A stretch of 64,000 nucleotides of DNA from Candidatus Poribacteria bacterium (lineage in GTDB: Bacteria; Poribacteria; WGA-4E; WGA-3G). Both the position numbers and the translations under genes were made by a program. The number at the start of each line of letters is the position of its first letter. Position 1 is the first letter of the stretch. Shown piece after piece: positions 2,446-48,671 of this stretch. The stretch lies in contig OZ240248.1 of NCBI GenBank assembly GCA_965198235.1, positions 4,576,001 through 4,640,000 on the forward strand. Reading direction: 5' to 3'. Below the pieces are notes generated by a model. It searched no databases and was not told where the DNA came from. It saw only the letters and a list, made by a program, of their open reading frames with translations.

Positions 2446-2540
2446 TCTGATATTCCTTGTGTTTGTATTGTAAGTTTTCTGCGTTGTCTAAATCACGGAT
2501 TTTGTGTATCGCCGATGTAGTTGAAGACAGGGACGATGGT

Positions 2541-4514: not shown

Positions 4515-4611
4515 GCAATTTCATAAAAGGACTGAATTATTGCGAATACATGGAACTTGTAAAAGGCGAGATGTTTTTGCTGGAGTGTTTCCCTCGCCTA
4601 TGAATGCTAAG

Positions 4612-5346
4612 TTAGAGCCCATGACCGATCAGCACCAGATCAAGGATATTAACCACTTTGTCTCCATTGACATCGGCAAGTATTCCGGCACCCTCGTCAC
4701 CGAGAAAACGACCTGCGATTATCATATCTTTCATGTTGACGAACCCGTCATTGTTGATGTCTTCGCGTCGCGGGATAATCCTTGCAAACCCCAAAATAGA
4801 GCCGGCGGGTCCAACGTGATAGGTTCGCAGGAGAGATGCATCTGCTACGTCCATGACGTGAACGAAATCCTGTCCGCCGCCCGACCAGTCGGGTTGGGTG
4901 ATATAGAGATTTCCATCTGGGGCAAAAGTCAGTCCTCCACTGACAGGAGTATCTGCATCGTTACTGAAATTAGCGATCGTATCGTCTTTATCCCGAATCC
5001 AGTCTCGCGCTGCGATATCATAGACAAGCAACCCAGGATTTTGCCAACTGCCTTGGATAAACAACTGTTTTTCTGAGCTGAAATGGAGTATTTCATTGTC
5101 AACAGCCCGTCTCTCATTCGATTCCTCCAGATTGATGAGTGAGAGTGAAGCGGTGATGCCCAAGTCGGGTTGTGTCAGGGCATTTATGACGACTGTTAGG
5201 TTCTGAACCTCTGTCTGTCCAAAAGCAGGACTAACGAGGTGTGTCAAAAGGATTGCCCCTACTATTAGGAACGAATAACATGAGAAGTGCCGCCGAGAGA
5301 CTTTTCTAGACGCGCTTGCAAGCGGTGCCGCTACAACTTTGTTCAT
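4612..5346 (-). CDS. Secreted protein with partial beta-propeller-like blades and a C-terminal dockerin type I-like domain
   Basis: ATG 5346 preceded by GGAGG (the ORF-track start 5544 lies in the riboswitch leader); signal peptide ending SPAFG; twin repeats EDINNDGFVNMKD and ADVNGDKVVNILD. Confidence 0.7.
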   Translation of the reverse strand: MNKVVAAPLASASRKVSRRHFSCYSFLIVGAILLTHLVSPAFGQTEVQNLTVVINALTQPDLGITASLSLINLEESNERRAVDNEILHFSSEKQLFIQGSWQNPGLLVYDIAARDWIRDKDDTIANFSNDADTPVSGGLTFAPDGNLYITQPDWSGGGQDFVHVMDVADASLLRTYHVGPAGSILGFARIIPRREDINNDGFVNMKDMIIAGRFLGDEGAGILADVNGDKVVNILDLVLIGHGL

Positions 5347-5366
5347 TAAAACCTCCGTAATGAAAC

Positions 5367-5399
5367 AAAAAACCCCTGCTTTCATCGGAAAGACAGGGG
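5367..5399 (-). terminator. Intrinsic terminator, expression platform of the cobalamin riboswitch
   Basis: Minus strand CCCCTG(T)CTTTC-CGAT-GAAAGCAGGGG-TTTTTT, just upstream of the RBS of the first operon gene. Confidence 0.8.
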
Positions 5400-5545
5400 A
5401 GGAAGCGGCACTCTGTGTGAGGCGTATCCTGTAAGTGTGTAGAAGAATTTCATACCTTATATCGGTATTTCTTTTTTCATCTGATCTGACAGGATACTGT
5501 GCTCTGTTCCACCGCTTTCCCGCGAAAGCAGATGCGTGAAACATG

Positions 5546-5753
5546 ATTCAGGCAGGTCTCCTGACTTCCGATCATTTAGCGTAGTTACAAGCCAAAACTC
5601 GCACTACAGAGTTCCGCTGAACCTTCCCATCAGTTATCTGACAGTGGTTTTTCAACGGATAATTGCCTTTGATAGAGGCTGATCGTTCACAGTGGCGGGG
5701 CCGTGGCGGATTCTCACCGCGCTTCCCTATTCTCCGTAATTCGGCACCTGAAC
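5546..5753 (-). ncRNA. Cobalamin (B12) riboswitch
   Basis: Minus strand TTCAGGTGCC...AATAGGGAAGCGCGGTGAGAATCCGCCACGGCCCCGCCACTGTGA...CCACTG...GGGAAGG...GAAGTCAGGAGACCTGCCTGAA: core motifs and B12 box present. Confidence 0.95.
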
Positions 5754-5781
5754 CGTTAGTTTATTCAATTGTAATACATAT

Positions 5782-5810
5782 ATTATATCACGTTGCACTA
5801 TCTTTTGCAA
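5782..5810 (-). promoter_or_regulatory. sigma70 promoter of the riboswitch operon
   Basis: TTGCAA-17 nt-TATAAT with extended -10 TG. Confidence 0.7.
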
Positions 5811-5974
5811 ATATTTTTTTCCAATGGGTGTGTAAATATTTCGGCAGCGGGTTGTCAGAAATAGGCTTCTTCGGTCTTAGGCAAATACGGGGCACAAACT
5901 AACAGTTTCTGCTACAGGGTAGCCCTTGTCATAATTGCGTGTCAAAAACTTTACACACCCTTTCCAATAAAAAT

Positions 5975-6003
5975 TTGACAATATAAAACAGATGTGGTAT
6001 TAT
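5975..6003 (+). promoter_or_regulatory. sigma70 promoter of the leader-hisI-trpE-trpG operon
   Basis: TTGACA-17 nt-TATTAT with extended -10 TG. Confidence 0.7.
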
Positions 6004-6068
6004 TAATATTAAGCGTGGATACATCCAAAAATTTGGCAGTTATCAACCATTGTTGAGAAGCGAAAAGA

Positions 6069-6170
6069 ATGACACTTTTACGTTCACACTCCAGCTTGCA
6101 TAGCATATCTAACCATTGGCATTGGTGGCGGTCCAATGGCTTGTGGGGGAGTGTGCGTTCAAACGGATAA
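6069..6170 (+). CDS. Attenuator leader peptide rich in His and Trp (33 aa)
   Basis: MTLLRSHSSLHSISNHWHWWRSNGLWGSVRSNG*; 4 His and 4 Trp with an HWHWW core; lies between the promoter and a terminator upstream of hisI-trpEG. Confidence 0.8.
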   Translation: MTLLRSHSSLHSISNHWHWWRSNGLWGSVRSNG

Positions 6171-6221
6171 CTGAGATAGAGACTGAAAATCGTCATTTTT
6201 TATTTTTAAGTCCTGTTGAAG

Positions 6222-6262
6222 CCTTATGCACACCGATCCCGGTAGCATAGGGTATTTTTTTT
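6222..6262 (+). terminator. Attenuator terminator hairpin
   Basis: CCTTATGC-AC-ACCG-ATCC-CGGT-A-GCATAGGG followed by TATTTTTTTT; the 5' arm can alternatively pair with GTGTGCGTTCAAACGGA (6151-6167). Confidence 0.8.
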
Positions 6263-6315
6263 GCAAAGTTCGCAGATTGCCAAAATTTGCTGTTGAAAAT
6301 GAAGAGGAGAACTCA

Positions 6316-6696
6316 ATGAAAATTCTATCGGAACTTAAGTATGACCGCGATGGTTTAGTCGCTGCAGTCATTCAAGATGAAACAAACAACGAAATCCTAA
6401 TGGTAGGCTATATGAACGCTGAGGCGATAAGTGAAACGCTGAGTACAGGGCGCGTCTGCTTCTGGAGTCGTTCCCGTCAAAAGTTGTGGATAAAGGGGGA
6501 GACTTCAGGGCATACACAGACGGTTAAATCTATCGCAGTAGATTGTGACGGTGATGCCCTGCTTATAAAGGTTGAGCAGAAGGTAGCGGCGTGCCATACG
6601 GGTTATCGCTCCTGCTTCTTTCGAGAAGTTTCCCCCGACGGAGAATCAACGCATGTAGTAGGTGAAAAGATTTTCGATGCAGATGCCGTCTATTAG
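6316..6696 (+). CDS. hisI: Phosphoribosyl-AMP cyclohydrolase
   Basis: FWSRSRQKLWIKGETSGH, DCDGDALL and ACHTGYRSCF motifs; GAGGAG RBS before ATG 6316. Confidence 0.95.
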   Translation: MKILSELKYDRDGLVAAVIQDETNNEILMVGYMNAEAISETLSTGRVCFWSRSRQKLWIKGETSGHTQTVKSIAVDCDGDALLIKVEQKVAACHTGYRSCFFREVSPDGESTHVVGEKIFDADAVY

Positions 6697-6702
6697 ACTC
6701 CA

Positions 6703-6733
6703 AGTTGTGGGAGGGCTTTGTAAGCCCGATTTC
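6703..6733. repeat. 31-nt REP-like palindrome, copy 2 (just after the hisI stop)
   Basis: Identical to 3468-3498. Confidence 0.8.
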
Positions 6734-6910
6734 GTATCTTGGCATCCGCTCGGGAATTGCTTGAGTAAGTTCATCTATGGTCTCGATTTTAAGGATAACG
6801 AAAATAGAGTACCGGCAGTTGTAGACGCCTTTTTCAACCCTGTCTCTTGCAATGTCCGGTGCTATAGAACAGAGAATTTTGATGCTAAGGATATGAAAAA
6901 GGAGCTACTA

Positions 6911-8413
6911 ATGTATTATCCCACGTTGGAAGATTTTCGCGAGGAAGCGAAATCAGGAAACACAATACCGGTATACCGATCGATTATGGCGGATATGGAG
7001 ACACCGGTGTCTGCTTTTTACAAGTTGATGCCAGGTAATTATGCGTTCTTGCTCGAAAGCGTTGAAGGTGGTGAAACCCTTGCGCGTTACTCTTTTTTGG
7101 GGACTCAACCCTCGGTGCTTTTCCATAGTAAAGGGCATCAGGTTACGATTGAGTATTTGGAAAAAGGCGAAACCGTAGTTCAGGAATATGAAGATCCGTT
7201 GAATGCTCTTGAGGAATTGATGCAGAATTACCGGCCTGTTGACACTGAAGAGTTACCAAAATTCCACGGCGGTGCAGTTGGTTATATGAGTTATGACATG
7301 GTGCGCTTCGTTGAGGAATTGCCAGATAATACCGAAGATGAACTGCAGCTTCCGGATTGCTTTTTCATGATTGCCGAGACGATTTTGATATTCGATCATG
7401 TGAACCACCAGATCAAGGTTGTGGCGAACGCGCATATTGATGGAGATGTAGATGGAGCTTATACGGATGCTCTTGCGAAAATTGAGGCATTGGTCGAGAA
7501 ACTTACCGCTGCTTCCGAAGCGCATTTACGCAGGGATAGTGGCGAGCATCAGGAGCGGTATGATAAAATCATATCCAGTCCGCAATCAAATTTCACGAAA
7601 TCCGATTACGAAGCCGCGGTCAGGCGCGCCAAGGAATACATAGCTGCAGGCGACATCATCCAGGTTGTGCCTTCCCAGCGGTTTAGTTGTCCGGTGTCCG
7701 TAGACTCGTTCGAGATATATCGGGCATTGCGAATGGTCAATCCATCACCGTATATGTATTACTTGAAGTTTGATGGTTTTGACATTGTAGGGGCATCACC
7801 CGAAATGATGGTTAGGGTAGAGGACGGAATCGTCCAAACGCGCCCGATTGCGGGCACACTTCCGCGCGGCACAACCGCTGAGGAGGACCGGGAGTTGGAG
7901 CAGAAACTTCTCTCCGATCCGAAGGAACGGGCAGAGCACGTCATGCTCGTTGATTTAGGACGGAACGACCTCGGTCGGGTCTGTGAATATCACACCGTTG
8001 AGGTGACTGACTTTATGATAGTCGAGCGTTTCTCACACGTGATGCACATCGTTTCACATGTCATTGGACGATTACGCGAAGATCTCACGGCTTTTGATGT
8101 TCTGCGCGCGTGCCTTCCCGCTGGGACACTCTCTGGTGCCCCGAAGATACGCGCAATGGAAATCATTGATGAACTCGAGCCGACACGTCGGAGTACGTAC
8201 GGCGGAACGGTGGGTTATTTCAGTTTTTCCGGCAGTGCAGACACGGCGATTACTATCCGAACCGCGGTTATCAAAGATAGCACCGCTTATGTGCAAGCTG
8301 GTGGTGGTATCGTTGCGGATTCAGTACCTGAAACTGAGTATTACGAAACCGTGAGTAAAGCGCGAGCAATGCTTAGTGCTATTGCATTGGCAGAACAAGG
8401 TTTCTTATTGTAA
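6911..8413 (+). CDS. trpE: Anthranilate synthase component I
   Basis: [36 protein letters not shown] and [10 protein letters not shown] motifs; AGGAG RBS before ATG 6911. Confidence 0.93.
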
Positions 8414-37694: not shown

Positions 37695-40600
37695 GTGAAC
37701 AAAAAGCCCATCCAGAAAAATGTGAGGATGTCTTTTGCCAAAACGCAGGTTCGGACCCCACTCCCGAACCTCATAGAGACCCAAAAACTTGCATATGATG
37801 CCTTCTTACAACAAGATATCCCACCTAATGAACGTCCGGATACTGGCCTCCAAGCGGTGTTTAAGGAAGTATTTCCGATTCGCGATTTTTCGGAGGTTAA
37901 CAGTCTTGAATTTGTCAATTACAGCCTTGGCACACCGAAATATACTCTCCAAGAATGTGTTGCGCGCGGTGTAACATATCAAGTATCCCTTACTGCCCGT
38001 ATTATGCTTGTCCTGCGTGAAGCAGACTCGGATGCAGATGAACCTCACGTTGTGGATATCCGAGAGTCCGATGTATATCTCGGCGAAGTTCCTTTAATGA
38101 CTGAAAATGGCAGCTTCATTGTCAATGGTAGTGAACGTGTGATCGTGAGCCAGCTGCACCGTTCGCCGGGTGTTATTTTTCTTGAAAAGGCATTGCCGAC
38201 GGGACGGCGTACACCGACTGCCCAAATTATTCCCTATCGAGGGGCTTGGGTCGAATTTGAAATAGACACCAAAGATCAGATTTATGTGCGCATTGACAAG
38301 CGTAGAAAACTGCCGGCTACTGTGCTTCTTCGTGCACTCGGTTGGGAGTCGGACGCAGATATCCTGAAGCTTTACGCCAAGACGGAACGACTTGTACTTG
38401 CCGGGTGGCAGGTTACGCATGTAGAAGGACCAGCAAAGAAAATCACATCTGGTGATTTGTTGGATGCTGCGGACTTTCGACAAGCCAGCAGAGACTATCC
38501 TGACCTTGAGGTAGAGAAGAGTTATCGTGTTATAGAAGTAACTGATAAGGACTGCCCACTGGAGATTGGACAAGCACTCACATATAAGAATCGGACGAGC
38601 CTTCGCAGAAAATGGAAGGGCTTTGAAACTGAGCTTCTTCGGCGTGTTGTTGACACCCACAATAGTGGGTGTGAGCTCATTCCCGAACAAGTGCTAACAA
38701 ATTCGGAATACGAAGAGGGGCGTGCCCGCTACGGAAGCAAAGCATTCGCAGCTGAACAGATTTTGTCCCAAGACAGCCAGGAAAGTGTCGGTAGGGTCTG
38801 CGCTGAAGACGTTATCAACCCAGAAACTGGCGAAGTGCTCCTCACAGCGAATACGCTGCTCACCGAAACGGAATTGGAACGTCTCAGTGAGACTGGTGTT
38901 GAGGCACTTACAGTACTGGATGAGGAAGATTGCCAGCACATCCGATTTTTGCGTAATACATTGGAGCGCGACCGACAGGCGGACTATGAGGAACCCTATA
39001 CTTTACAAGATGCCGCACTGCTTGAGATTTTCCGCACGCTGAGACCCGGAGATCCTGCTGGTATAGAGAACGCTCGTAAACACCTTTCATGGTTGCTCTT
39101 TGACCCGCACCGATACGATTTAGGTGTAGTTGGACGGTACAAACTGAATCGAAAATTCCAGAATATTCCCGTTTATGGTGAGCCACCTGAAGAGACTTTG
39201 CGCACGCTCCGTCCCGAAGATATTGCCGCTACGGTAGATTATCTTCTTAAAGTCCACAACGGGATTGCTCCGAAAGACGATCTTGATCATCTCGGTAATC
39301 GCCGCGTACGTGTTATCGGTGAGTTACTCGAAAACCAGTTCCGAATGGGTTTATTCCAGATTCGCAGAACTACGCGCGAACGCTTGAGTACCAACAATGA
39401 TATTGCGAAGGTCGTCCCGTCTTCGCTCATAAATCCGAAACCGCTGATGATGGCACTCCGGGAATTTTTTGGATCGAACCAGCTGTCGCAGTTTATGCAA
39501 CAGATTAATCCGTTGGATGAATTGACGCATAAGCGTCGTATCTCAGCAATTGGTCCAGGTGGGCTTCACCGAGATAGAGCAACGGCAGCCGTTCGGGATG
39601 TACATCGAACGCACTATGGACGTGTCTGCCCCTTGGAGACACCTGAGGGACCATCCATCGGTCTTATCGTTTCTTTGGCGTGTTATGGACGGATAAACCC
39701 TTATGGTTTTATAGAGACCCCTTATCATAAGGTTGAGGACGGTTCGGTGTTGGATCCAGTGGAATATCTGACAGCAGATAGTGAGGATACTGCTTACATT
39801 GCTGCAAAGGCGATCTCGAACGATGCCGAACAAGCTGGAAATGGTGAGGCATCGGGGTTACAAACCCCTCCTACAGAGCAGATGCTGCCTGTACGCAGTG
39901 GGGAGGATGTGCTGTCGCTTCCGATGGAAAAAGTGGACTATATCGGTGTTTCTCCACAGCAGATAGTCGGCATTTCTGCTGCGTTGGTTCCGTTTCTGGA
40001 ACATGAGGACGCAAACCGGGCATTGATGGGTGCTAATCACCAACGTCAGGCTGTGCCGCTTGTCCGTCCAGAAGCACCGCTCGTCGGAACGGGGATGGAA
40101 GCCCCGGCGGCACTGTATTCAGGTGCACTCATCACCGCTAAGCGAGCTGGTACCGTCACAAGTGTTTCCGCCGATGAGATCCTCATATATACTGGCGAAA
40201 CACTTCATCATGACAAGGGTGAGAATACGTTCAGCGAAATGGGCTACGATGTTTACAAACTCCAAACATTCAAACGGAGTAATAGCGGCACCTGTATTCA
40301 CCAGCACCCCATCGTTGCAGTGGGCGATAAAGTTGAAGCCGGACAGGTTATTGTGGATGGCACCTCTACAGAGAGCGGTGAACTCGCTCTTGGGCGGAAT
40401 GTGCTGTGCGCTTATATGCCGTGGGGCGGTCACAATTACGAGGACTCTATCCTGATAAGTGAGACACTCATCAAGGAAGATATCTTCACCTCTATCCACA
40501 TTGAAGAATTTGAAGTGGAGGCACGTGAGACGAAAGTGGGCCCGGAGGAAATCACCCGTGATATTCCGAACGTTAGCGAGCAGCGGCTTACACAACTTGA

Positions 40601-42938
40601 TGAAGAGGGTATTATTCACGTTGGGAGCGTTGTGGGTGCAGGAAGCATCCTCGTCGGAAAAATTACACCGAAAGGTGAAAGTGAATATGGTCCGGAAGAG
40701 AAGCTCCTACGCGCAATCTTTGGTGAAAAAGTCAAAGAAGTAAGGGATGCTTCGACTTATGTACGCCCCGGAGTTGAGGGTGTCGTTATTGATGTAAAAG
40801 TATTCTCCCGTAAGCCGGATGCTGCCTCCCGTCGTGGAGGTTGGGCACAAGGCGACTCAGGGTTATCGATGGCTGACAATTTGCGATATGAATCGAAACG
40901 CAAAGAGATTGAAGAGACTTCGCGTGAGCAGATCGCTTCTATCCGTCGCCGAAAAATCGAAGAGATTCGCAAAACACTCATAGGATGTGAACTTGCTGAT
41001 TCGCTTTACACGGTTAATGGAACTAAAGGTGATACTGACGCTAAACTCTTCGCTAATGCTGGTGATACCCTGACAGCTGAGGTTTTGGACGCTTATATTT
41101 CCGGTTTCACTGCAGATGAGTACCACTTGGTAACCGAAGATACAAACTCTGAAGTTTTTACCGCTGAAGCGTGTTATAGGGTAACAGACGTACCTGAATC
41201 AATTCCTACTATTGTGGTCTATCCTTCGGATTCCTCAGCAGTGCAAGGATACCTTAGCGAAGTGTGCAAACCGATTTTGGGAAGTACTGAGCCATTCTTG
41301 CAGGAAACGGAATCTGTAGATGGGGACTTAGAAGATGCTGATGTTGTGCTTCAGGGTTACGATAACAGTGTGATTGCTATTGCTGTGTGTGAAGACGCTC
41401 ACACTGACGATGAGGATGCTGAAAACGGGTATCATTCCGAGCGTCTGATGGAGATGCTTGCTGCAACAGGAGCACGATTTGGTGTATTGGTACCTGACGG
41501 TGAGCCAGAACCCGATAACTGGGATTTCTATGAACTCGTAGATTTGACCAGCGACTCGCCTCCGACACAAGACTCAGAAGCACGAGTCGCTGATCAAACT
41601 GTGTTGCAACTGTGTGAGCGTTCTGAGTTTGAGACTGGAATTACCACACAACTTGAAGCAACTGGATGCCCTGTCGTTGAGACACAGAGGCTCAACGAGG
41701 AAGAATGGACGAACTTCAGTCAGACTTATCCGGGTTTACAAGCCGAGTTATTTTGGCAAATTAAGGAAGTTTTCGACCCCGCGTGCCCCTTGACCGAAGG
41801 ACAAGAACTCTCCGATACCGACTATCTGCGAATGTCCAGAGATTTTCCTGCACGTCCTATAGCAGCGGGTCAACGACTGGCTGCGGATGAACTGGCATCA
41901 TTTACCCGGACCATCAAGGATTTGAAAATCGACAGCGTCTGGCACATTACCGTTGTTTTTGACCCAGAGTGTACACTGTCTGCTGGAGAATATGTTTCTG
42001 ATGCCGACTATCAAGAGGCACGTAAATCATGTAGCTTGACTTTCTCAGACATCCATGTTACCAATGCCAATGCCAGAGAGCATATTCAGCGTGTTGAAGA
42101 GATGGCGCAAGGCAGGATAACCACTTACACTGAGGAGAAAGAACGAGCACTTCAGCAGTTAGAGATGGGTGATGAGCTAAAACCAGGAGTCATCAAACGC
42201 GTCAAAGTCTATGTCGCAAGCAAGCGTCCGATTTCCGTCGGCGATAAGATGGCGGGCCGCTACGGCAACAAAGGTGTTGTTGCCAAAATTTTGCCTGCTG
42301 AGGATATGCCCTATCTGCCGGATGGTACCCCGGTTGAGTTGGTACTGAACCCGTTAGGTGTGCCCTCTCGAATGAACGTCGGTCAAATCTTGGAAATTCA
42401 TCTCGGATGGGCGTGCCATGAACTCGGTATCCAAGTGGAATCCCCTGTATTTGATGGTGCAACAGAGGGAGAAATCTTTGAAATGCTTGGTAAGACCGAG
42501 CTCCCAGAACGCAGTAAACAGACCGGTAAGAGCATTCTCTTTGATGGTAGAACCGGTGAGGCATTTGCCCAGGAAGTAACGGTGGGTTACGTCTATTTCC
42601 TCAAGCTGAACCACCTTGTTGCTGATAAGATGCATGCTCGCTCAACGGGACCTTATTCTCTTGTTACACAGCAACCGTTGGGAGGCAAGGCACAACACGG
42701 GGGCCAACGGCTCGGTGAGATGGAGGTCTGGGCATTGGAGGCTTATGGTGCAGCCCATACGCTCCAAGAAATGCTCACGCTCAAATCAGATGACGTTCTT
42801 GGTAGAAGAGAGATTTACGAGTCGGTTGTGAAAGGGTTAAATCCTGAACCGCCCGGTACACCGGAATCATTTAAAGTCTTGGTCCGCGAACTCCAAACCC
42901 TTGGACTTCATGTATCCCTCGATAAGGATGAAGAATAG
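37695..42938 (+). CDS. rpoB: RNA polymerase beta subunit (1747 aa, with large insertions)
   Basis: SQLHRSPG, HYGRVCPLETPEG, GDKMAGRYGNKG and GGQRLGEMEVWALE motifs. Confidence 0.99.
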   Translation: MNKKPIQKNVRMSFAKTQVRTPLPNLIETQKLAYDAFLQQDIPPNERPDTGLQAVFKEVFPIRDFSEVNSLEFVNYSLGTPKYTLQECVARGVTYQVSLTARIMLVLREADSDADEPHVVDIRESDVYLGEVPLMTENGSFIVNGSERVIVSQLHRSPGVIFLEKALPTGRRTPTAQIIPYRGAWVEFEIDTKDQIYVRIDKRRKLPATVLLRALGWESDADILKLYAKTERLVLAGWQVTHVEGPAKKITSGDLLDAADFRQASRDYPDLEVEKSYRVIEVTDKDCPLEIGQALTYKNRTSLRRKWKGFETELLRRVVDTHNSGCELIPEQVLTNSEYEEGRARYGSKAFAAEQILSQDSQESVGRVCAEDVINPETGEVLLTANTLLTETELERLSETGVEALTVLDEEDCQHIRFLRNTLERDRQADYEEPYTLQDAALLEIFRTLRPGDPAGIENARKHLSWLLFDPHRYDLGVVGRYKLNRKFQNIPVYGEPPEETLRTLRPEDIAATVDYLLKVHNGIAPKDDLDHLGNRRVRVIGELLENQFRMGLFQIRRTTRERLSTNNDIAKVVPSSLINPKPLMMALREFFGSNQLSQFMQQINPLDELTHKRRISAIGPGGLHRDRATAAVRDVHRTHYGRVCPLETPEGPSIGLIVSLACYGRINPYGFIETPYHKVEDGSVLDPVEYLTADSEDTAYIAAKAISNDAEQAGNGEASGLQTPPTEQMLPVRSGEDVLSLPMEKVDYIGVSPQQIVGISAALVPFLEHEDANRALMGANHQRQAVPLVRPEAPLVGTGMEAPAALYSGALITAKRAGTVTSVSADEILIYTGETLHHDKGENTFSEMGYDVYKLQTFKRSNSGTCIHQHPIVAVGDKVEAGQVIVDGTSTESGELALGRNVLCAYMPWGGHNYEDSILISETLIKEDIFTSIHIEEFEVEARETKVGPEEITRDIPNVSEQRLTQLDEEGIIHVGSVVGAGSILVGKITPKGESEYGPEEKLLRAIFGEKVKEVRDASTYVRPGVEGVVIDVKVFSRKPDAASRRGGWAQGDSGLSMADNLRYESKRKEIEETSREQIASIRRRKIEEIRKTLIGCELADSLYTVNGTKGDTDAKLFANAGDTLTAEVLDAYISGFTADEYHLVTEDTNSEVFTAEACYRVTDVPESIPTIVVYPSDSSAVQGYLSEVCKPILGSTEPFLQETESVDGDLEDADVVLQGYDNSVIAIAVCEDAHTDDEDAENGYHSERLMEMLAATGARFGVLVPDGEPEPDNWDFYELVDLTSDSPPTQDSEARVADQTVLQLCERSEFETGITTQLEATGCPVVETQRLNEEEWTNFSQTYPGLQAELFWQIKEVFDPACPLTEGQELSDTDYLRMSRDFPARPIAAGQRLAADELASFTRTIKDLKIDSVWHITVVFDPECTLSAGEYVSDADYQEARKSCSLTFSDIHVTNANAREHIQRVEEMAQGRITTYTEEKERALQQLEMGDELKPGVIKRVKVYVASKRPISVGDKMAGRYGNKGVVAKILPAEDMPYLPDGTPVELVLNPLGVPSRMNVGQILEIHLGWACHELGIQVESPVFDGATEGEIFEMLGKTELPERSKQTGKSILFDGRTGEAFAQEVTVGYVYFLKLNHLVADKMHARSTGPYSLVTQQPLGGKAQHGGQRLGEMEVWALEAYGAAHTLQEMLTLKSDDVLGRREIYESVVKGLNPEPPGTPESFKVLVRELQTLGLHVSLDKDEE

Positions 42939-42971: not shown

Positions 42972-45900
42972 ATGAACACGGCATTTGACAGCATCTCCAT
43001 AAAGATAGCCTCGCCCGATCAGATTAAAGACGAGTCGAAGCAGACCAGTTGCAAACGTCGGAAGCCCGCCCAAGAAGCGGATGCACCTTTTATCTGCCCC
43101 GAGAAAGGGACATGTAGTTGTGGCGAGGTCAAGAAGGCGGAGACTATTAACTACCGCTCCTTTCGTCCTGAAGCGGAGGGCCTCTTCTGTGAGGCTATCT
43201 TTGGACCACAAAAGGACTGGGAGTGTAACTGTGGTAAGTATAAACGGATTAAACATAAAGGGATGATATGTGACCGCTGTGGTGTTGAAATCACACAACA
43301 GCGTGTTCGCAGAGATCGACTCGGATATATTCAGCTTGCCGCACCTGTCTCTCATATATGGTACTTCAAAGGAATTCCTTCTCGCATCGGCACCTTCTGT
43401 GAACTCTCCTCACGTGATGTTGAGCGTGTGCTCTATTTTGAGGGGTTTATCGTCGTTGAAGTGACTGACCCAGATTGTCCTCTTGAACGTGGGCAGGTGT
43501 TAACCGAGATTGAGTACATAGAACACAGCAACAAGTACGGGGATGGATTTCGGGCTGGCACCGGTGCAGAAGTCATTCGCGAATTACTCAGCGATATTGA
43601 TCTTGAGGCGGAGATAGAGAAGTTAACCACAGAGTTGGAGGAAACAACGAGCCATCAGAAAAAGCTGAAGATCGCCAAACAACTGAAACAGATAGCTGAC
43701 TTTGCAGAAGTTGGTCAGCGGCCCGAGTGGATGATTTTGGATGTTATTCCTGTCATCCCACCAGATTTACGACCTCTTGTTCCGCTTGAAGGTGGACGTT
43801 TTGCTACCAGCGACCTGAACGACCTGTATCGCCGTGTTATCAATCGGAACAACCGACTGCGTAAATTGATACAGCTCCGTTCCCCCGAAGTCATTCTCCG
43901 TAACGAGAAACGGATGTTACAGGAGGCAGTCGACGCATTCTTCGACAATGGACGGCACGGTAGGCGTGTCACCGGTCCGGGTAACCGTCCGCTCAAATCC
44001 CTTGCTGATGTTCTCAAAGGTAAGATTGGGAGGTTCCGTCAGAATCTGCTCGGTAAGCGGGTTGACTACTCTGGACGGAGTGTCATCGTTGTTGGACCTG
44101 AATTGGGGTTGCATCAGTGTGGGATCCCCAAACGGATGGCTGTAGAGTTGTTTAAGCCGTTCATTATTGAGCGACTTCAAGCGTATGGGTATACGCAGAC
44201 AATTAAGCGTGCGAAGCATATTGCTGAACACGTTGATTCCGATTCTCCTGTATGGGAAGTCGTAGAGGAAGTGATTGCGGATCATCCAGTTTTACTCAAT
44301 CGCCCGCCAACTTTGCACCGGCTCGGCATTCAGGCATTTTTGCCTGTCTTGGTAGAGGGCAAGTCGATCCGGATTCCGCCACTCGTCTGTAAAGCGTTTA
44401 ACGCTGATTTTGACGGTGACCAGATGGCAGTCCATGTACCACTCACCGTGGAAGCCCAAGCTGAAGCGAAACTCCTAATGCTCAGCAGTCATAACATTCT
44501 CAAGCCCTCACATGGCGATCCTATCGCTGTTCCGGAGCTTGACATGGTACTCGGACCCAGTTTCCTGACAAAGGTGTTGCCAGAGCACGCTGCGGATGCG
44601 ACACTTCTGCATGATGCTTATACAACAAGCGATCCTTCTGCTTTTGATGCCCTCCGTGAAAAGCCATGGTTCCATCGTCGCTACGCACACCCAGAAGAGG
44701 TGCTTACCGCTCATGCAGCGGGTCAACTTAAACTGCACGACAGCATCCAGCTTTTCCGTGCATCTAATGGGGATGATGGGAAAACCACGGAACCAATTCT
44801 AACGACAGTCGGCAGGGTAATATTTAACCAAGTACTGCCGTCTGGTTTAGAGTGGGAGGATGCAAATTCTCAGCAGCGTATTTCGTTCTTCAATGCTGAA
44901 GCTGGAGGCAGAGAACTGTCTAACCTGATCCACCGTTGTTTCAACGAATTGGGCACACGTGCCACGACTGAAGTGCTTGAGAAAGTACAGAAGCTTGCTT
45001 TCGAGTATGCAACGCTGAGTGGTGTTTCGCCCGGTATCATGGATTACATTACTCCTGAGAATCGCGATGCTTTGGTGAGCAAAGCACAGGCAGAAATTGA
45101 CACCCTCCTTGGCAATGTCACGGCGACCGAGCGCGAAGAACATGAAAACGAGCAGATTCGTATCTGGTTGGATGCGATTACAGCCGTTGAGAACACAATG
45201 TTCTCGATTTTGCCCCAGTTAGAGACCTCTCTCGTTGAGCGCGGTGACCCTCGAAAGATTCATCCGTATGTTGATCCCGATGGGTTAGAGGTACGCGACA
45301 GAACAGTAGAAGGCTTCAGTCCGGTACATATCATGGCAGATAGTGGCGCACGAGCACGGAAGAATCCATTTATGCAAATCAGTGCTGTTATCGGGTTGAA
45401 AGCCAAGCAGAGCGGTGAAATTCTCATTCCGCCGATTACCACCTCTTATCGTGATGGTCTGGACGTACTTGACTACTTCAACTCTACTTATGGATCCCGT
45501 AAGGGTCTCGTGGATACGGCGATGAAAACCGCCGCGTCCGGTTACCTCACTCGAAAGCTTGTGGATGTGGCTCAAGATGTTCGTGTCACTACTGAAGACT
45601 GCAGCACGCTTAATAGCATCCAAAAGTTCGCGACAGAGGGGGGCGACCTTGCTTTTAAGATTAGCGGACGCACTGCTGCCGAGGATATCCTCAATCCAGA
45701 GAGCGGGGGCCTGCTTGTTCCATCGGGTACTGTCATATCGGCGCAGATGGCGGACCAGATTGACGCACTTGGCATAAGAGTGGCGAAAGTGCGCTCTGTG
45801 CTCACGTGCCAAACCGATGATGGAGTCTGCGCAAAATGCTACGGTAACGATTTGACGACGAATGATCTTGTCAATGTTGGCGAAGCTGTGGGCATCATTG

Positions 45901-48671
45901 CTGCACAGTCTATCGGTGAACCGGGTACGCAACTTACTATGCGGACGTTCCACACCGGGGGTGCTGTTGAAGATGTTTCAGAAGCGCGTCAGCGCAGAAT
46001 TTTGTCTAAAGTCAGTGGCACCGTGTATTTCCGAGATTTCCAACCCAGTCGGACGGTCAAAGAAGAGGGCGAGCTCTGGGTCGCAACCGAAAACAGAACG
46101 AATCTTGATGAACCTGCCTACAAGGTTATACGAGTTAACAATCCTCACTGTCCATTGCGAGAGCATGAATTACTCAGTGAGAAGCAGTACATGGAAAACG
46201 CGGAGCGCTATAAAGGTTTTGATACAAAGACGTGGCAGTATCAAGTCACAGCTGTCTTGGATAGCGACTGCGACTTGAATGTGGGGGGGCGACTGTCTCA
46301 GGCAGAATACGTCAAGGCACAGATGGAATATAGCTTCCAGCGATTTGTGACCCCAAAATACCGAGTGGCGCGGGTGCAACATCCTAAGCTTCCATTGACT
46401 GTTGGCACCGAGCTCACTGAAGAAGAGATAGAGCAATTGAGAACTGATATCCGGCAAGGGATTAACGGAGAATGGCATTACTTAGATGCAGAAACAGGCG
46501 AGCGTATTGCTATTGAAAGCCTTACAGCAGTTTCAGGTAATGCTTCTTCTGAGCGTCCGAACGGTTCCTCTGATAATCCCGATACTGCGAATGCGTCTGG
46601 GCGAGATGCGAGTTTTAATCGTGTGTATTGTATAACCGAAATAGATAAGCAGACAAGCAAAGACTTCGGATTTAAGGTAGGAGACGAAGTTGCACCAGAA
46701 GAAATTGCTCCGTTGCTTAATCCATTTGAGATGGAGATAAAGCCCGTTTACGTTGTACATACAGAGGTTGCTGAATTTACAGTTAGTCAGACATTAACGT
46801 CCCGTGAGTACGAGGACGCTCGCACAGAGTATCAGCAACTTGAACGCGCATTTAAAGTTGAAAAACAGGATGATGAACGACACTATGTGACAGCTGTGTA
46901 TCATCCCGAATGTCCTTTTGAAGTGGGTGAAGAATTGAGCGAGGCAGCCTTAACCCGTGCACGCAAGCGATTTCCAGGTTTTGATGCACCGCCCCTACGA
47001 CACCGTGTAACGCAGGTGCATCATCTGGACTGCAGTCTCAAACCGAGAGATCTACTTACTGAGAGTGAGAAAAAACAATTCGATGAGAGTTACCCTGGAT
47101 TCGTCACTTCTCAAAGTAAGAGCACCGCGGGTGGCTTTGCAGGAGAACGGTTATACCGTGTTACATCGGTCAATCATCCTGACTGCCCATTAGAAGTTGA
47201 TGGTCTCTTGACGCAAAAGGAATCATCTGCAAACCGCCGACACTACAAGGGTTTTGAAGTTGCACGTCATTATGAAGTGACACACATTGAAGATGAAACG
47301 ACAGCGTTAAGTGTCGGTCAGCGTCTCACCGAGATCGAGTATAAAGCACTCCGCAAGACGGATGCTTCGTTACCTGAGAAAGTCAAAGGACTCTATCATG
47401 TCATTAGCGTCCATCACCCTGAATTGAACCTGGAGGTTGGTGCTGAATTGAGTGAAGACGAGTATAAGACGTCCCATCGCCAGTTCAAAGGATTTGATGT
47501 TGAGCTGGTTTACCAGGTAACTGTGGATACGCGGGATGTTGATGAACTACTTGAGGTTGGGACTATTCTACCCTCGAAGGAATACCGGGCTCTTGAGAAA
47601 GCAAACTTGCGGGTGACCCATACCGTCACCGAGGTTCATCATCCGAATTGCAAGTACGCTGTCGGCGACGAATTGTCCGAGGAAGTATACAATGAGGCAG
47701 CGAGACGGTATCCCGGATTCGAGATCGATGAATTGTCATTGCGGATGCGTATTGAGGTAGAAACATCGGATGGGAGTCGGGTGCCGCATGTCATTCCTAC
47801 GGGTTACTCCTTCTCTTTGACAGAGGGTGATAGCATTCAGAAGGGAGAAACGCTGGCAGAGCTCTATGAGAGGACAGCGAACCGTGACATTGTTGCTGGT
47901 ATTCCGCGTGTCACTGAATTGTTTGAAGCGCGCCGCCCGAAACGCGGTGAAGCCGCAGAAATCGCTGAGATTGAAGGTTACGTCCAATCTGCAGGCACGA
48001 AGTCAGGTATTCCTACCTACCGCATTGAGCACGAGGGATATCAGAGTCGTCTCTATCAAATACCTGATGAGAAGCGACGCGTCGCTGAAGGCGATTGGGT
48101 GAATGCCGGTGAACCCCTCACCGATGGTTATCTCAATCCGCACGATATTTTGAGTATCGGACGTACGACTATTGAAGGTGTATCGGTTGAGGGTGAAGAG
48201 GCGGTCTGGTCATATCTCGTCGATGAAGTCCAGAAAGTCTACGGCAAGGGGACTATCAACGATAAACACGTTGAGGCAATCGTCCGACAGATGTTGACTA
48301 AGATTCGTATCACCGAGCCGGGCGACACAAACTTCTACCCGAACGATGAAGTGCAACGCAAGCAATTTGAACGCGTTAACAGTGAGATTGAGGAAAAAGG
48401 TGGAACGCCTGCCTCGGGTGAACCGATTCTCCAGAGCATAAGTAAAGCCTCCTTGAGTACAGATAGCTTCATCTCAGCTGCATCCTTCCAGCAGACGACG
48501 AAGGTGCTAACGGATGCTGCTGTCGGTGGGCAAACCGATAGACTCTTTGGGTTGAAGGAAAACGTTATTCTCGGTAGACTCATACCAGCGGGAAGTGGAT
48601 TCTCCAGTTTCCAGGACTTAGAGATATCCTCCATTGAACCAGAAATAGGCGAAGCTGGTGATGACGATTAA
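42972..48671 (+). CDS. rpoC: RNA polymerase beta-prime subunit (1899 aa, with a large trigger-loop insertion)
   Basis: CNCGKYK...CDRCG, GKRVDYSGRS, NADFDGD, GEPGTQLTMRTFH and GLKENVILG motifs. Confidence 0.99.
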   Translation: MNTAFDSISIKIASPDQIKDESKQTSCKRRKPAQEADAPFICPEKGTCSCGEVKKAETINYRSFRPEAEGLFCEAIFGPQKDWECNCGKYKRIKHKGMICDRCGVEITQQRVRRDRLGYIQLAAPVSHIWYFKGIPSRIGTFCELSSRDVERVLYFEGFIVVEVTDPDCPLERGQVLTEIEYIEHSNKYGDGFRAGTGAEVIRELLSDIDLEAEIEKLTTELEETTSHQKKLKIAKQLKQIADFAEVGQRPEWMILDVIPVIPPDLRPLVPLEGGRFATSDLNDLYRRVINRNNRLRKLIQLRSPEVILRNEKRMLQEAVDAFFDNGRHGRRVTGPGNRPLKSLADVLKGKIGRFRQNLLGKRVDYSGRSVIVVGPELGLHQCGIPKRMAVELFKPFIIERLQAYGYTQTIKRAKHIAEHVDSDSPVWEVVEEVIADHPVLLNRPPTLHRLGIQAFLPVLVEGKSIRIPPLVCKAFNADFDGDQMAVHVPLTVEAQAEAKLLMLSSHNILKPSHGDPIAVPELDMVLGPSFLTKVLPEHAADATLLHDAYTTSDPSAFDALREKPWFHRRYAHPEEVLTAHAAGQLKLHDSIQLFRASNGDDGKTTEPILTTVGRVIFNQVLPSGLEWEDANSQQRISFFNAEAGGRELSNLIHRCFNELGTRATTEVLEKVQKLAFEYATLSGVSPGIMDYITPENRDALVSKAQAEIDTLLGNVTATEREEHENEQIRIWLDAITAVENTMFSILPQLETSLVERGDPRKIHPYVDPDGLEVRDRTVEGFSPVHIMADSGARARKNPFMQISAVIGLKAKQSGEILIPPITTSYRDGLDVLDYFNSTYGSRKGLVDTAMKTAASGYLTRKLVDVAQDVRVTTEDCSTLNSIQKFATEGGDLAFKISGRTAAEDILNPESGGLLVPSGTVISAQMADQIDALGIRVAKVRSVLTCQTDDGVCAKCYGNDLTTNDLVNVGEAVGIIAAQSIGEPGTQLTMRTFHTGGAVEDVSEARQRRILSKVSGTVYFRDFQPSRTVKEEGELWVATENRTNLDEPAYKVIRVNNPHCPLREHELLSEKQYMENAERYKGFDTKTWQYQVTAVLDSDCDLNVGGRLSQAEYVKAQMEYSFQRFVTPKYRVARVQHPKLPLTVGTELTEEEIEQLRTDIRQGINGEWHYLDAETGERIAIESLTAVSGNASSERPNGSSDNPDTANASGRDASFNRVYCITEIDKQTSKDFGFKVGDEVAPEEIAPLLNPFEMEIKPVYVVHTEVAEFTVSQTLTSREYEDARTEYQQLERAFKVEKQDDERHYVTAVYHPECPFEVGEELSEAALTRARKRFPGFDAPPLRHRVTQVHHLDCSLKPRDLLTESEKKQFDESYPGFVTSQSKSTAGGFAGERLYRVTSVNHPDCPLEVDGLLTQKESSANRRHYKGFEVARHYEVTHIEDETTALSVGQRLTEIEYKALRKTDASLPEKVKGLYHVISVHHPELNLEVGAELSEDEYKTSHRQFKGFDVELVYQVTVDTRDVDELLEVGTILPSKEYRALEKANLRVTHTVTEVHHPNCKYAVGDELSEEVYNEAARRYPGFEIDELSLRMRIEVETSDGSRVPHVIPTGYSFSLTEGDSIQKGETLAELYERTANRDIVAGIPRVTELFEARRPKRGEAAEIAEIEGYVQSAGTKSGIPTYRIEHEGYQSRLYQIPDEKRRVAEGDWVNAGEPLTDGYLNPHDILSIGRTTIEGVSVEGEEAVWSYLVDEVQKVYGKGTINDKHVEAIVRQMLTKIRITEPGDTNFYPNDEVQRKQFERVNSEIEEKGGTPASGEPILQSISKASLSTDSFISAASFQQTTKVLTDAAVGGQTDRLFGLKENVILGRLIPAGSGFSSFQDLEISSIEPEIGEAGDDD

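Follow-up and report, generated by a model that had tools for sequence, protein, structure and literature searches.

A ~40-residue module shared by the beta and beta-prime subunits of a poribacterial RNA polymerase, and its possible link to nuclease-bearing cassettes

The inserts that distinguish the RNA polymerases of different bacterial lineages are generally regarded as old. A recent survey, in the part that is accessible, argues that insertion came in a single early burst and then fell off steeply (PMC11515920, Discussion). The locus discussed here raises the question of how one small module came to stand at several places of both catalytic subunits. It lies in a stretch of 64,000 nucleotides (the window) from a Candidatus Poribacteria bacterium, an organism of the sponge-symbiont type. 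The original prediction, made from the letters alone, held that the same module occurs at two sites of RpoB and had spread between the subunits.

The arrays of RpoB and their counterparts in RpoC

The rpoB gene (37695..42938; all features given here are on the forward strand) is a single open frame with a GTG start that encodes a beta subunit of 1747 aa, identified with Pfam and NCBIfam (TIGR02013, 1613 bits), and rpoC (42972..48671) encodes a beta-prime subunit of 1899 aa. Both RpoB arrays fall between the regions that flank E. coli beta 225-343 (beta-i4) and 938-1040 (beta-i9). At site 1, RpoB 191-228 and 364-464 align by phmmer with E. coli beta 189-225 and 292-383; at site 2, where the boundaries were mapped by two flank queries, RpoB 900-1041 and 1462-1582 correspond to E. 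coli beta 797-938 and 1009-1129. The site 1 array is inside beta-i4 and the site 2 array at the tip of beta-i9, as had been predicted. The canonical second half of beta-i4, with its TGE motif, follows at aa 364-410 (38784..38924) and, where phmmer aligns it with the beta chains of E. coli and Vibrio, is conserved from E. coli beta residue 292 onward; VIA-align relates this half to BEAN-fold proteins (7egs_A 225-336: Z 6.6, rmsd 4.5, 73 aligned). The whole insert at the beta-i9 position (aa 1042-1461, 40818..42077) has ~420 aa versus ~100 in E. coli, and phmmer with RpoB aa 1040-1500 gave no matches to solved structures. In RpoC, one native module occupies aa 157-197 (43440..43562), and ten units fill a trigger-loop insert (aa 1048-1588, 46113..47735) whose flanks match E. 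coli beta-prime 902-978 and 1101-1213 in alignment, which puts the insert within SI3.

An iterated HMM seeded with one RpoC unit converged on 17 units in the two subunits, 11 of them in RpoC. Site 1 (38400-38762) comprises three units of ~40 aa: B1 (aa 236-276, 38400..38522), which is without the loop Cys and is modeled by AF2 as strand / short strand / helix; B2 (aa 275-315, 38517..38639), which is closest to beta-i4 units from genera g3, g4 and g5; and B3 (aa 317-356, 38643..38762). The three peptides proposed for this site lie where they had been located. The peptides and positions proposed for site 2 (41640-42029) held as well, and the "about four units" seen there are in fact two full and two short ones, the short units having no first strand: short B4 (aa 1316-1353, 41640..41753), full B5 (aa 1354-1391, 41754..41867; AF2 pLDDT ~90), a weak short unit (aa 1388-1413, 41856..41933) and full B6 (aa 1414-1445, 41934..42029). 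The weak unit scores -0.3 bits with the all-unit HMM and is accepted only because the alternation of short and full units recurs in the 851-aa TPR protein of a relative.

Circularity was controlled with an HMM made from the 11 RpoC units alone and run against 500 shuffles of RpoB. This profile gave 33.5 bits for B2, 19.2 for B3, 17.8 for B5, 9.1 for B6, 5.9 for B4 and 4.3 for B1, and the best shuffle reached 5.0, so that four of the six RpoB units are clearly above chance, and the control rules out chance or low-complexity similarity as the source of the unit matches. For the other two, which score 46.3 (B1) and 42.6 bits (B4) with the all-unit HMM, the support under the RpoC-only profile is one of phase and position only. 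The reverse HMM, made from RpoB units only, matches 11/11 RpoC units with up to 33.5 bits. In the profile-profile comparison, which had been named in advance as the check on relatedness, hhalign joined the RpoB-unit and RpoC-unit profiles over 39/41 columns (probability 99.1%, E 7.1e-19), and the two sets are homologous. The RpoB arrays are copies of one module of ~40 residues (strand / short strand / helix) that is present in 11 copies in RpoC. The ~20 copies over four locations originally envisaged become 17-18 units, and the four locations stand: beta-i4 and beta-i9 in RpoB and, in RpoC, the native beta'-bD2 site and SI3 in the trigger loop.

Nearest-neighbor scores among 109 units pair the site 1 units with beta-i4 units of other genera, and place the site 2 units closest to each other and to RpoC units, with poor resolution. 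At the DNA level, the unit-coding stretches contain four repeat families of 19-23 nt, which is the chance level, and none joins RpoB with RpoC units.

A search of 1.84 billion representative proteins with the units returned 45 at E <= 0.001. Among the 27 of these that were checked with Pfam, nine carried RNA-polymerase families, three were TPR proteins and six were LVIVD false positives; the LVIVD-repeat proteins, like one Ig-rich protein, match only profile positions 4-19 or 28-40 and belong to unrelated families. Within this genome, the 31,322 six-frame ORFs hold no unit matches besides RpoB and RpoC. The trigger-loop arrays of RpoC are confined to one family of Poribacteria, in which they are family-wide; four genera have beta-i4 arrays, and a single genus has the beta-i9 array. 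The beta-i9 insert is present in 43/44 genomes of this genus and in 0/39 genomes outside the family; in five genomes outside the family (one each from f2, f6 and f7, two from f3), RpoB has 1309-1410 aa and no units, and RpoC has one unit. The spread between subunits that had been proposed is borne out by this distribution, which is stepwise among the relatives, and the unit expansion is young.

The nearest relative of the module

Compared with solved structures, the 17-unit profile matches 6j9e_D at beta-prime residues 152-179 (E 8.5e-5). It also matches 7ye1_D (E 0.0078) and 6wvj_D, 7l7b_D, 6wmr_D/6wmp_D and 8i23_D (E 0.14-1.7) there, more weakly and not significantly when these are taken singly; the matches in solved beta-prime chains fall at residues ~135-181. 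When the window's own bD2 unit is removed from the profile, 6j9e_D is still the top match (E 0.0029), and an HMM without this unit gives 28.9-34.1 bits on the bD2 of relatives in families f2 and f3 and only 7-8 bits in f5-f7. Judged by sequence, the nearest relative of the unit is the conserved beta-prime element at ~150-180, known as beta'-bD2, the "small left claw" or sLC.

In the accessible part of Alvarez-Carreno et al. 2024 (PMC11515920), sLC is counted among the rare inserted domains of beta-prime, and its insertions are placed only within beta'-bD2, bD4, bD5 and bD7, in Firmicutes and the DST group. The unit resembles sLC (beta'-bD2 / beta'-bD7, CATH 3.30.60.280) in that its profile matches this ~40-aa bacterial beta-prime element, and differs from what that part of the survey describes in reaching 17-18 copies and in standing also in beta (beta-i4, beta-i9) and inside the trigger-loop insert. 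The accessible literature, this survey included, gives the cyanobacterial SI3, with nested SBHM/HABAS domains, as the largest known trigger-loop insert (PMC11515920). The RpoC array is likewise a very large insert at that position, but it is built of ~40-aa units framed by SBHM-like flanks, a frame recognized from sequence and from the alignment to E. coli SI3 only, and not of SBHM repeats. The AF2 models of the units show strand / loop / short strand / helix, and in the structure comparison the only row at an sLC position is a weak one (6edt_D, Mtb beta-prime, 1163-1215: Z 2.5, rmsd 3.5, 48 aligned). Foldseek against the PDB found nothing at E <= 0.001 for the site 1 or the site 2 model; the top 50 rows for the site 1 model are all RNA polymerase beta chains, but with an rmsd of ~20-29 A.

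That beta and beta-prime have a module in common is an old idea and not new as a concept, since Iyer, Koonin and Aravind reportedly named such modules BBM1 and BBM2 in 2004. The units might then be ordinary BBM2 repeats, or halves of the BEAN fold, long known in beta-i4 and beta-prime, with only the copy number raised, a reading that is possible but not the one we would expect to hold. According to the accessible portions of the sources, the prediction for beta-i4 is one to six BBM2 repeats in tandem, with two in E. coli (Opalka 2010, PMC2939025); Iyer 2004, as summarized in PMC1586193, proposed that BBM2 was inserted four times into beta and twice into beta-prime; and the two strands plus helix of the unit would be the make-up of one BEAN "bracket" (PMC11515920, section 2.3). 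Like BBM2 / BEAN (CATH 3.90.105.10), the unit is a small module of similar secondary structure at several sites of both large subunits, beta-i4 included, and BEAN-fold proteins are within the top 11 rows for the site 1 model (1uz5_A: Z 6.8, rmsd 1.9, 55 aligned; also 7egs_A). These BEAN rows, however, span model residues 1-183 with only 50-73 aligned, which fits the conserved split core and not the units, and rows confined to the site 1 units have Z <= 3.5. The canonical beta-i4 half of the same protein (RpoB 382-404) gives only 2.2 bits with the unit HMM and 0.7 with the RpoC-only HMM, and the units have no detectable sequence match to this half. Furthermore, the significant matches to solved structures are all beta'-bD2 and none is a beta chain, and in the literature that is accessible neither the beta-i9 tip nor SI3 is a site of BBM2-type units.

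A metal- or redox-sensing array was another proposal, drawn from a His/Cys loop thought to recur as H-P-x-C, and we consider it highly improbable. The loop Cys is present in 12/17 units and is invariant or nearly so in orthologues (C61, C100; C285, C347), but there is one Cys per unit, solved beta-prime chains have Thr at the matching position, and H-P-x-C occurs in 0/6 RpoB units. Only 6/17 units, one of them in RpoB, have a His in the four residues preceding the loop Cys, and the proposed sensing role finds no support in these counts.

A putative nuclease-fold domain at beta-i9 and cassettes in relatives

The beta-i9 insert contains more than units, and what adjoins them at site 2, together with its link to cassettes in relatives, lay beyond the original prediction. 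Two short "FT-A-E/D-x-Y-x-V-T" motifs (~aa 1137-1166, 41103..41192), read by eye, stand ahead of a domain at aa 1167-1315 (41193..41639) that is assigned from VIA-align and profile comparison to a degenerate PD-(D/E)xK nuclease fold of the HsdR_N type. The assignment is indirect. Pfam found no family at E <= 1 in RpoB aa 1120-1319, and homology to HSDR_N_2 is reached only via free-standing relatives that pass threshold: a profile of the domain gives 41.4-88.7 bits on free-standing HSDR_N_2 proteins, and free-standing relatives of the domain score 36.5 and 31.5 bits on PF13588 versus a Pfam cutoff of 25. By structure, the domain matches the BpuSI nuclease domain (3s1s_A, rmsd 3.5, 105 aligned) with Z 6.8, a value below the level common for unrelated folds and nearly equaled by flavodoxin-like folds; eight further rows among 50 have the restriction-endonuclease fold. 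The insert thus probably holds a degenerate HsdR_N-type domain, which agrees with HSDR_N_2 (PF13588, the N-terminal PD-(D/E)xK domain of type I restriction enzymes) in that its free-standing relatives pass Pfam and the fold matches concur, and departs from it in being embedded in RpoB, unrecognized by Pfam directly and without E-x-K. The catalytic motif reads ADVVL...IAIAVCE in the window versus ADIVL...IAIAECK in the free-standing relatives, and the catalytic Glu is replaced, with loss of E-x-K, in 40/40 aligned RpoB orthologues. The domain has a net charge of -30.

As far as the accessible text goes, E. coli beta-i9 (SI2) is a two-helix "ladder" with a distal hook, and all size variation, over a range of 105-143 aa, lies between the two ladder helices (Opalka 2010, PMC2939025). 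The window's insert shares this insertion point and also has its extra residues between the ladder helices, but unlike E. coli beta-i9 it is ~420 aa long, with a nuclease-fold domain and four units. The 851-aa TPR protein of a relative is colinear with RpoB aa 1212-1443 (E 3.1e-27). No nuclease remnant was detected at site 1 (beta-i4) or in the RpoC array of the window.

Nuclease-like domains accompany the units in relatives as well. Two relatives (P0004, P0051) combine units with an HNH-like motif, a motif read by eye and sub-threshold in Pfam (E 0.31 and 0.23), and among solved structures the HNH profile found only McrA (E 0.52). Another relative (P0047) has an intact D...E-C-K motif with units, and an RpoC fragment has MTES_1575 with units; in P0068 the units are kept and the nuclease is absent. 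The lead motif of the window's insert also seems to head the relatives' cassettes, by direct reading of the sequences. Cassette A is found in 6/114 RpoB proteins, a pattern that needs at least five changes on the core tree, with gain weighed against precise loss by parsimony on a midpoint-rooted FastTree tree. Its carriers have non-carriers as close as 0.003 substitutions per site, the distances being 0.003-0.014 (0.068 for P0081), and a constant flank signature travels with the cassette. Divergence differs between cassette and host: in the pair P0004/P0005 the identity is 99.3% for the core and 73.2% for the cassette, and in the pair P0055/P0081 it is 92.2% for the core and 83.6% for the cassette. 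The relatives' cassettes are in frame, with intact-looking nuclease motifs, and are carried by some rpoB alleles of a genus but missing from nearly identical others, the alleles being cluster representatives from metagenome assemblies.

An intein or intron was considered and rejected, given the continuous frame, the protein-like conservation and the lack of a splicing family. Searches of P0001 (E <= 0.01) and of P0004, P0047 and P0051 (E <= 1) detected no intein or Hint family, and a reading by eye of the cassette junctions found no Cys/Ser/Thr ... His-Asn splice pattern. One parallel is the ShiLan HNH element of a phage methylase, which its source, as far as accessible, describes as neither intein nor intron (PMC11855218). 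Like inteins and such unspliced homing insertions, the relatives' cassettes are nuclease-bearing insertions in a conserved gene, sporadic among close relatives; unlike the ShiLan nuclease, which in that account is out of frame, they are in frame with the host and carry a repeat array. Sporadic presence and an element history uncoupled from that of the host, as expected of a homing element, are found for the relatives' cassettes and not for the window.

Origin of the arrays and what it would mean

The arrays might have arisen only from tandem duplication and ectopic recombination within rpoB and rpoC, the nuclease domains being later and unrelated passengers. The lack of a nuclease domain at site 1 and in the RpoC array would fit this account, as would the resemblance of the units to the lineage's own beta'-bD2. 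It does not, however, account easily for three unrelated nuclease families that directly adjoin units at four sites and in a non-polymerase protein, for the TPR protein, which has the cassette layout of RpoB site 2 in colinear order, or for the uncoupled divergence of cassette and host, and we therefore think it unlikely.

The explanation that we narrowly prefer to believe is that the arrays of the window are fixed, nuclease-dead and selectively constrained relics of nuclease-unit cassettes that spread a bD2-type module. Judging from the distribution, the native beta'-bD2 element would have been amplified inside the RpoC trigger-loop insert in one family of Poribacteria, and the module would then have reached RpoB, first at beta-i4, in four genera, and later at the tip of the helical hairpin of beta-i9, in a single genus. 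The vehicle, seen in relatives and presumed for the window, would be an in-frame, unspliced cassette with the order short lead motifs, nuclease domain (HNH or PD-(D/E)xK), and alternating short and full units. The beta-i9 insert appears to have exactly this layout, with a dead nuclease motif and an acidic surface. Over 65 pairs from 12 genomes, dN/dS is 0.014-0.048 in the core, with values of 0.13 in the units and 0.32 in the nuclease-fold domain. Because the insert is fixed in the genus, is under purifying selection and has a dead motif, it would be a domesticated relic that is now a surface excursion of the enzyme; as a guess, its most likely role is that of a putative binding platform. The beta-i4 array, with no nuclease remnant, could be either a relic of greater age or a simple duplication. 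The window itself has no sign of recent mobility, as its unit DNA has no repeats beyond chance and its nuclease motif is dead.

More tentatively, and with some doubt on our part, poribacterial rpoB and rpoC may be under colonization by undescribed mobile cassettes, unspliced and in frame, each with lead motifs, a swappable nuclease head and a bD2-derived array; the beta-i9 insert of the window, and perhaps its beta-i4 and trigger-loop arrays, would be domesticated relics of them. The heads in question would be HNH, HsdR_N-type or Vsr-like PD-(D/E)xK. The modules might make the insertion tolerable to the host enzyme, or assist in directing the nuclease to its target.

In one bacterial family, ~400 to 1,100 residues have been added to the two catalytic subunits, and the copy numbers and sites of the units vary between genera and even between nearly identical alleles. 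For annotation, these polymerases are 30-80% longer than family models expect, and the inserts are not to be taken for fusion or assembly errors. Intact cassettes, nuclease-dead relics and units alone would form a natural series for the study of domestication, and the link to nucleases offers a concrete, testable mechanism by which new surface domains could arise on an essential and highly conserved enzyme. If the genes are indeed colonized by mobile cassettes, selfish elements would be the force behind large-scale domain accretion in RNA polymerase, and this accretion would be still ongoing, rather than having ended near the bacterial ancestor.

Repeat units in both large subunits

The genes rpoB (37695-42938, + strand, 1747 aa) and, downstream of it, rpoC (42972-48671, + strand, 1899 aa) were recognized by both Pfam and NCBIfam models, and their products are well above the lengths of the family models (1238 and 1147 positions). 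An iterated HMM search seeded with one RpoC repeat converged at 17 units of about 40 residues each, all encoded on the + strand. RpoB has three units at site 1 (B1-B3; aa 236-276, 275-315 and 317-356) and three at site 2 (B4-B6; aa 1316-1353, 1354-1391 and 1414-1445), along with a weak short unit (aa 1388-1413); these peptides and coordinates are those listed for RpoB in the original prediction. RpoC contains a single unit, its native β′-bD2 (aa 157-197), and an array of ten (aa 1048-1588, window 46113-47735), which is broken by low-complexity sequence around aa 1170-1258. Two opposite-strand open frames within rpoB (38094-38690, 198 aa, and 40119-40619, 166 aa, both - strand) were taken as chance frames.

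The similarity between the RpoB and RpoC units exceeds chance. A profile built from RpoC units only scored 33.5, 19.2, 17.8, 9.1, 5.9 and 4.3 bits on the six RpoB units, against a top score of 5.0 bits for 500 shuffled RpoB sequences, and the reverse profile (RpoB units only) recovered all 11 RpoC units. B1 and B4 were weak in the RpoC-only test and are supported mainly by position and phase. The profile-to-profile comparison that the original prediction had named as a possible refutation aligned the two sets with an hhalign probability of 99.1% (39 of 41 columns, E 7.1e-19). The proposed spread of the module between the subunits is supported. In general terms a shared module is already known: BBM2, the "β-β′ module 2", is a small module recurring in both large subunits, and β-i4 was predicted to have one to six repeats (passages of PMC2939025), while Iyer et al. 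2004 proposed four BBM2 insertions in β and two in β′, as recounted in a passage of Cavalier-Smith 2006 (PMC1586193).

The positions of the two RpoB sites, predicted as β-i4 and β-i9, were confirmed by alignment of their flanks to E. coli β. At site 1, RpoB 191-228 corresponds to E. coli-type β 189-225 and RpoB 364-464 to β 292-383, so the first half of β-i4 is replaced by three units; the second half, including the TGE motif, is conserved. At site 2, RpoB 900-1041 aligns with β 797-938 and RpoB 1462-1582 with β 1009-1129, and in B. subtilis β, which lacks β-i9, the same flanks abut at residues 896/897; this places the site between the two ladder helices of β-i9. According to the part of Opalka et al. 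(PMC2939025) that treats this element, all size variation of β-i9 occurs between these helices, within a range of 105-143 aa, whereas β-i9 of this RpoB is about 420 aa long. The RpoC array falls within the trigger loop at the position of SI3, with flanks that align with E. coli β′ 902-978 and 1101-1213; the insert is about 600 aa long, and the strands that frame its units align to the initial and final portions of E. coli SI3.

Affiliation of the unit and its distribution

In AlphaFold2 models of RpoB 1080-1460 (mean pLDDT 84) and RpoB 227-422 (mean pLDDT 78), each built from a 40-sequence alignment, a full unit runs from a long strand through a loop and a short strand to a helix. Against solved structures, the unit profile matched a single location, β′ residues about 135-181, with 6j9e_D 152-179 as the best match (E 8.5e-5) and weaker matches to 7ye1_D, 6wvj_D, 7l7b_D, 6wmr_D/6wmp_D and 8i23_D; 6j9e_D stayed on top (E 0.0029) when the window's own bD2 copy was excluded from the profile. 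This location is β′-bD2, the "small left claw" (CATH 3.30.60.280), as named in the relevant passage of Alvarez-Carreno et al. 2024 (PMC11515920).

The top 11 VIA-align rows of the site 1 model include the BEAN-fold set of the same paper (PMC11515920): MoeA, E. coli β-i4, the β′ BEAN domain and Orn/Lys/Arg decarboxylases (e.g., 1uz5_A, Z 6.8, rmsd 1.9, 55 aligned; 7egs_A, Z 6.6, rmsd 4.5, 73 aligned). These rows range over model residues 1-183, yet align 50-73 residues, and rows restricted to the site 1 units do not exceed Z 3.5, a picture that fits matches to the conserved, split β-i4 core of the model. Because the solved-structure matches point to β′-bD2, the canonical half of β-i4 in this RpoB is not recognized by the unit profile (2.2 bits) and the BEAN rows fit the split core, the unit is filed by sequence under β′-bD2; it may also be related to BBM2/BEAN.

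All named matches to the unit are labelled Candidatus Poribacteria. Among 1.84 billion representative proteins, 45 matched the profile at E ≤ 0.001. Pfam analysis of 27 of these found nine with RNA-polymerase families (subunits or pieces), three TPR proteins, one Ig-rich protein and eight without a polymerase family, including P0161, which has an MTES_1575 nuclease family; six LVIVD-repeat proteins were rejected as false positives. In the genome under study, the unit is restricted to RpoB and RpoC (31,322 six-frame ORFs).

A survey of 121 genomes of the phylum with RpoB aa 1130-1450 recovered the full-length β-i9 insert from 43 of the 44 genomes in the window's genus, the sole exception being an 84%-complete assembly with rpoB truncated by a contig edge. 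Matches in the family's other genera stayed at unit level, and the insert was found in none of the 39 genomes outside the family. The rpoBC genes were also read from 13 genomes inside and outside the family. Outside it, in families f2, f3 (two genomes), f6 and f7, RpoB is 1309-1410 aa long with zero units and RpoC has exactly one, the native bD2; the f5 genome had no unit at 8 bits or more. Within the family, RpoC arrays of 9-21 units occur in all five genera and β-i4 arrays of 3-5 units in four; the fifth has a typical RpoB of 1340 aa without units. In the sister genus g2, most RpoB proteins are unit-free at about 1340 aa, two (L029 of G077 and L030 of G012; 1555 and 1814 aa) have 2-4 units mid-protein, and RpoC lengths extend to 2383-2511 aa, with as many as 21 units.

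Scored with a unit profile that leaves it out, bD2 reaches 31.3 bits in this genome, 28.9-34.1 in f2 and f3 and only 7-8 in more distant families, a gradient suggesting that the amplified unit derived from the lineage's own bD2. The unit-coding DNA of the window has no shared repeat beyond chance-level matches of 19-23 nt, so the duplications are old. Titles, abstracts and passages of the literature searched contained no account of a bD2-like identity of the unit, its presence at the β-i9 tip or inside SI3, the recency of its spread or its association with nuclease domains.

A nuclease-fold domain beside the site 2 units

The original prediction had missed a domain of about 150 aa (RpoB aa 1167-1315) that separates the first ladder helix from the site 2 units. 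Its best VIA-align matches, nine of 50 rows, are restriction-endonuclease folds, among them the nuclease domain of BpuSI (3s1s_A; Z 6.8, rmsd 3.5, 105 aligned) and 1wdj_A (Z 6.2); flavodoxin-like folds reach Z 5-6 against the same domain, so structure by itself is indecisive. Free-standing relatives found in genome searches score 41.4-88.7 bits with the RpoB-domain profile and exceed the Pfam HSDR_N_2 threshold (36.5 and 31.5 bits, cutoff 25). They have the motif ADIVL...IAIAECK, versus ADVVL...IAIAVCE in this RpoB, and none of the 40 aligned RpoB copies retains the motif Glu. Together with a net charge of -30, the structural matches, relatives and motif loss identify the domain as a predicted dead nuclease fold. 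A 216-aa ORF elsewhere in the same genome (C1:272355-273002, - strand) matches the nuclease-fold profile (E 7.3e-6, 26.6 bits) and is probably a free-standing HsdR_N-type protein.

An 851-aa congener protein has two such domains, short/full/short/full units, a membrane segment (sequence reading), a coiled coil and TPR repeats, and is colinear with RpoB aa 1212-1443 (31% identity, E 3.1e-27). It belongs to a pair of adjacent TPR proteins with HsdR_N-type domains (genome G095, L017 562-3117 and 3178-4293, both - strand), and its unit array places the cassette also outside RNA polymerase. P0134, P0135 and P0142 from the wide search resemble these TPR proteins.

Across 12 genomes from the window's genus (dS > 0.05 in 65 of 66 pairs), dN/dS was 0.13 for the units, 0.32 for the nuclease-fold domain, 0.25 for the stalk and 0.014-0.048 for the flanking core; the insert is thus constrained, yet much freer than the core. 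The proposed metal array was not borne out: a loop Cys occurs in 12 of the 17 units and H-P-x-C is missing from all six RpoB units, so a family-wide metal site is unsupported.

Cassettes in related polymerases

The window's layout, two sets of three units plus one nuclease-fold domain, recurs in 84 of 114 RpoB cluster representatives that exceed 1600 aa; the remaining 30 did not match the landmark patterns or had additional sites. Cassette A, found in-frame near aa 490 in six of the 114, consists of short FT-x-EE-x-Y-K-V motifs, a CxxC...HAHH...N...CxxCH segment and 2-5 units; its HNH-like segment stays below the Pfam HNH threshold (E 0.31 and 0.23), with an McrA match at E 0.52. In P0004 (aa 530-860) and P0051 (aa 520-870) this segment is followed by four units, and P0068 is a remnant that kept a short and a full unit, with the nuclease gone.

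Cassette B follows an ETPY motif near aa 690. In the 2352-aa RpoB P0047 (aa 690-1260; L031 of G076, 1222-8364, - strand) it forms a second insert, in which units flank an intact-looking DIAVL...VIAECK motif (Pfam HSDR_N_2, 25.6 bits) and which also holds a second degenerate nuclease copy and five further units; in six other proteins cassette B is two units and nothing more. A third nuclease family, an MTES_1575/DUF559-type restriction-endonuclease domain, lies beside 4-6 units at the β′-bD7 position in P0137 (a 596-aa RpoC fragment) and P0161. Arrays beside intact-looking nucleases have a charge of about -3 to +5 per 100 residues, versus about -9 for the site 2 units.

Parsimony on a core tree of 1106 columns, with alleles taken from assemblies, gave at least five changes for the six carriers of cassette A and at least three for the eight carriers of cassette B. 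Non-carrier neighbors are 0.003-0.014 substitutions per site away (nearest to P0081, 0.068). Between the carriers P0004 and P0005, identity is 99.3% in core and site 2 but 73.2% for the cassette; the pair P0055 and P0081 shares 92.2% identity in the core, 59.5% in site 2 and 83.6% in the cassette. On any background, the flanks are altered identically in all carriers (..D-x-E/Q-V-Y-L/Q-x-P-S-F.. and ..P-A/T-E-T/S..). With gain told from loss by parsimony, sporadic carriers, uncoupled divergence and common flanks form the pattern, though not the proof, of a mobile element that would have repeatedly entered one site and later decayed.
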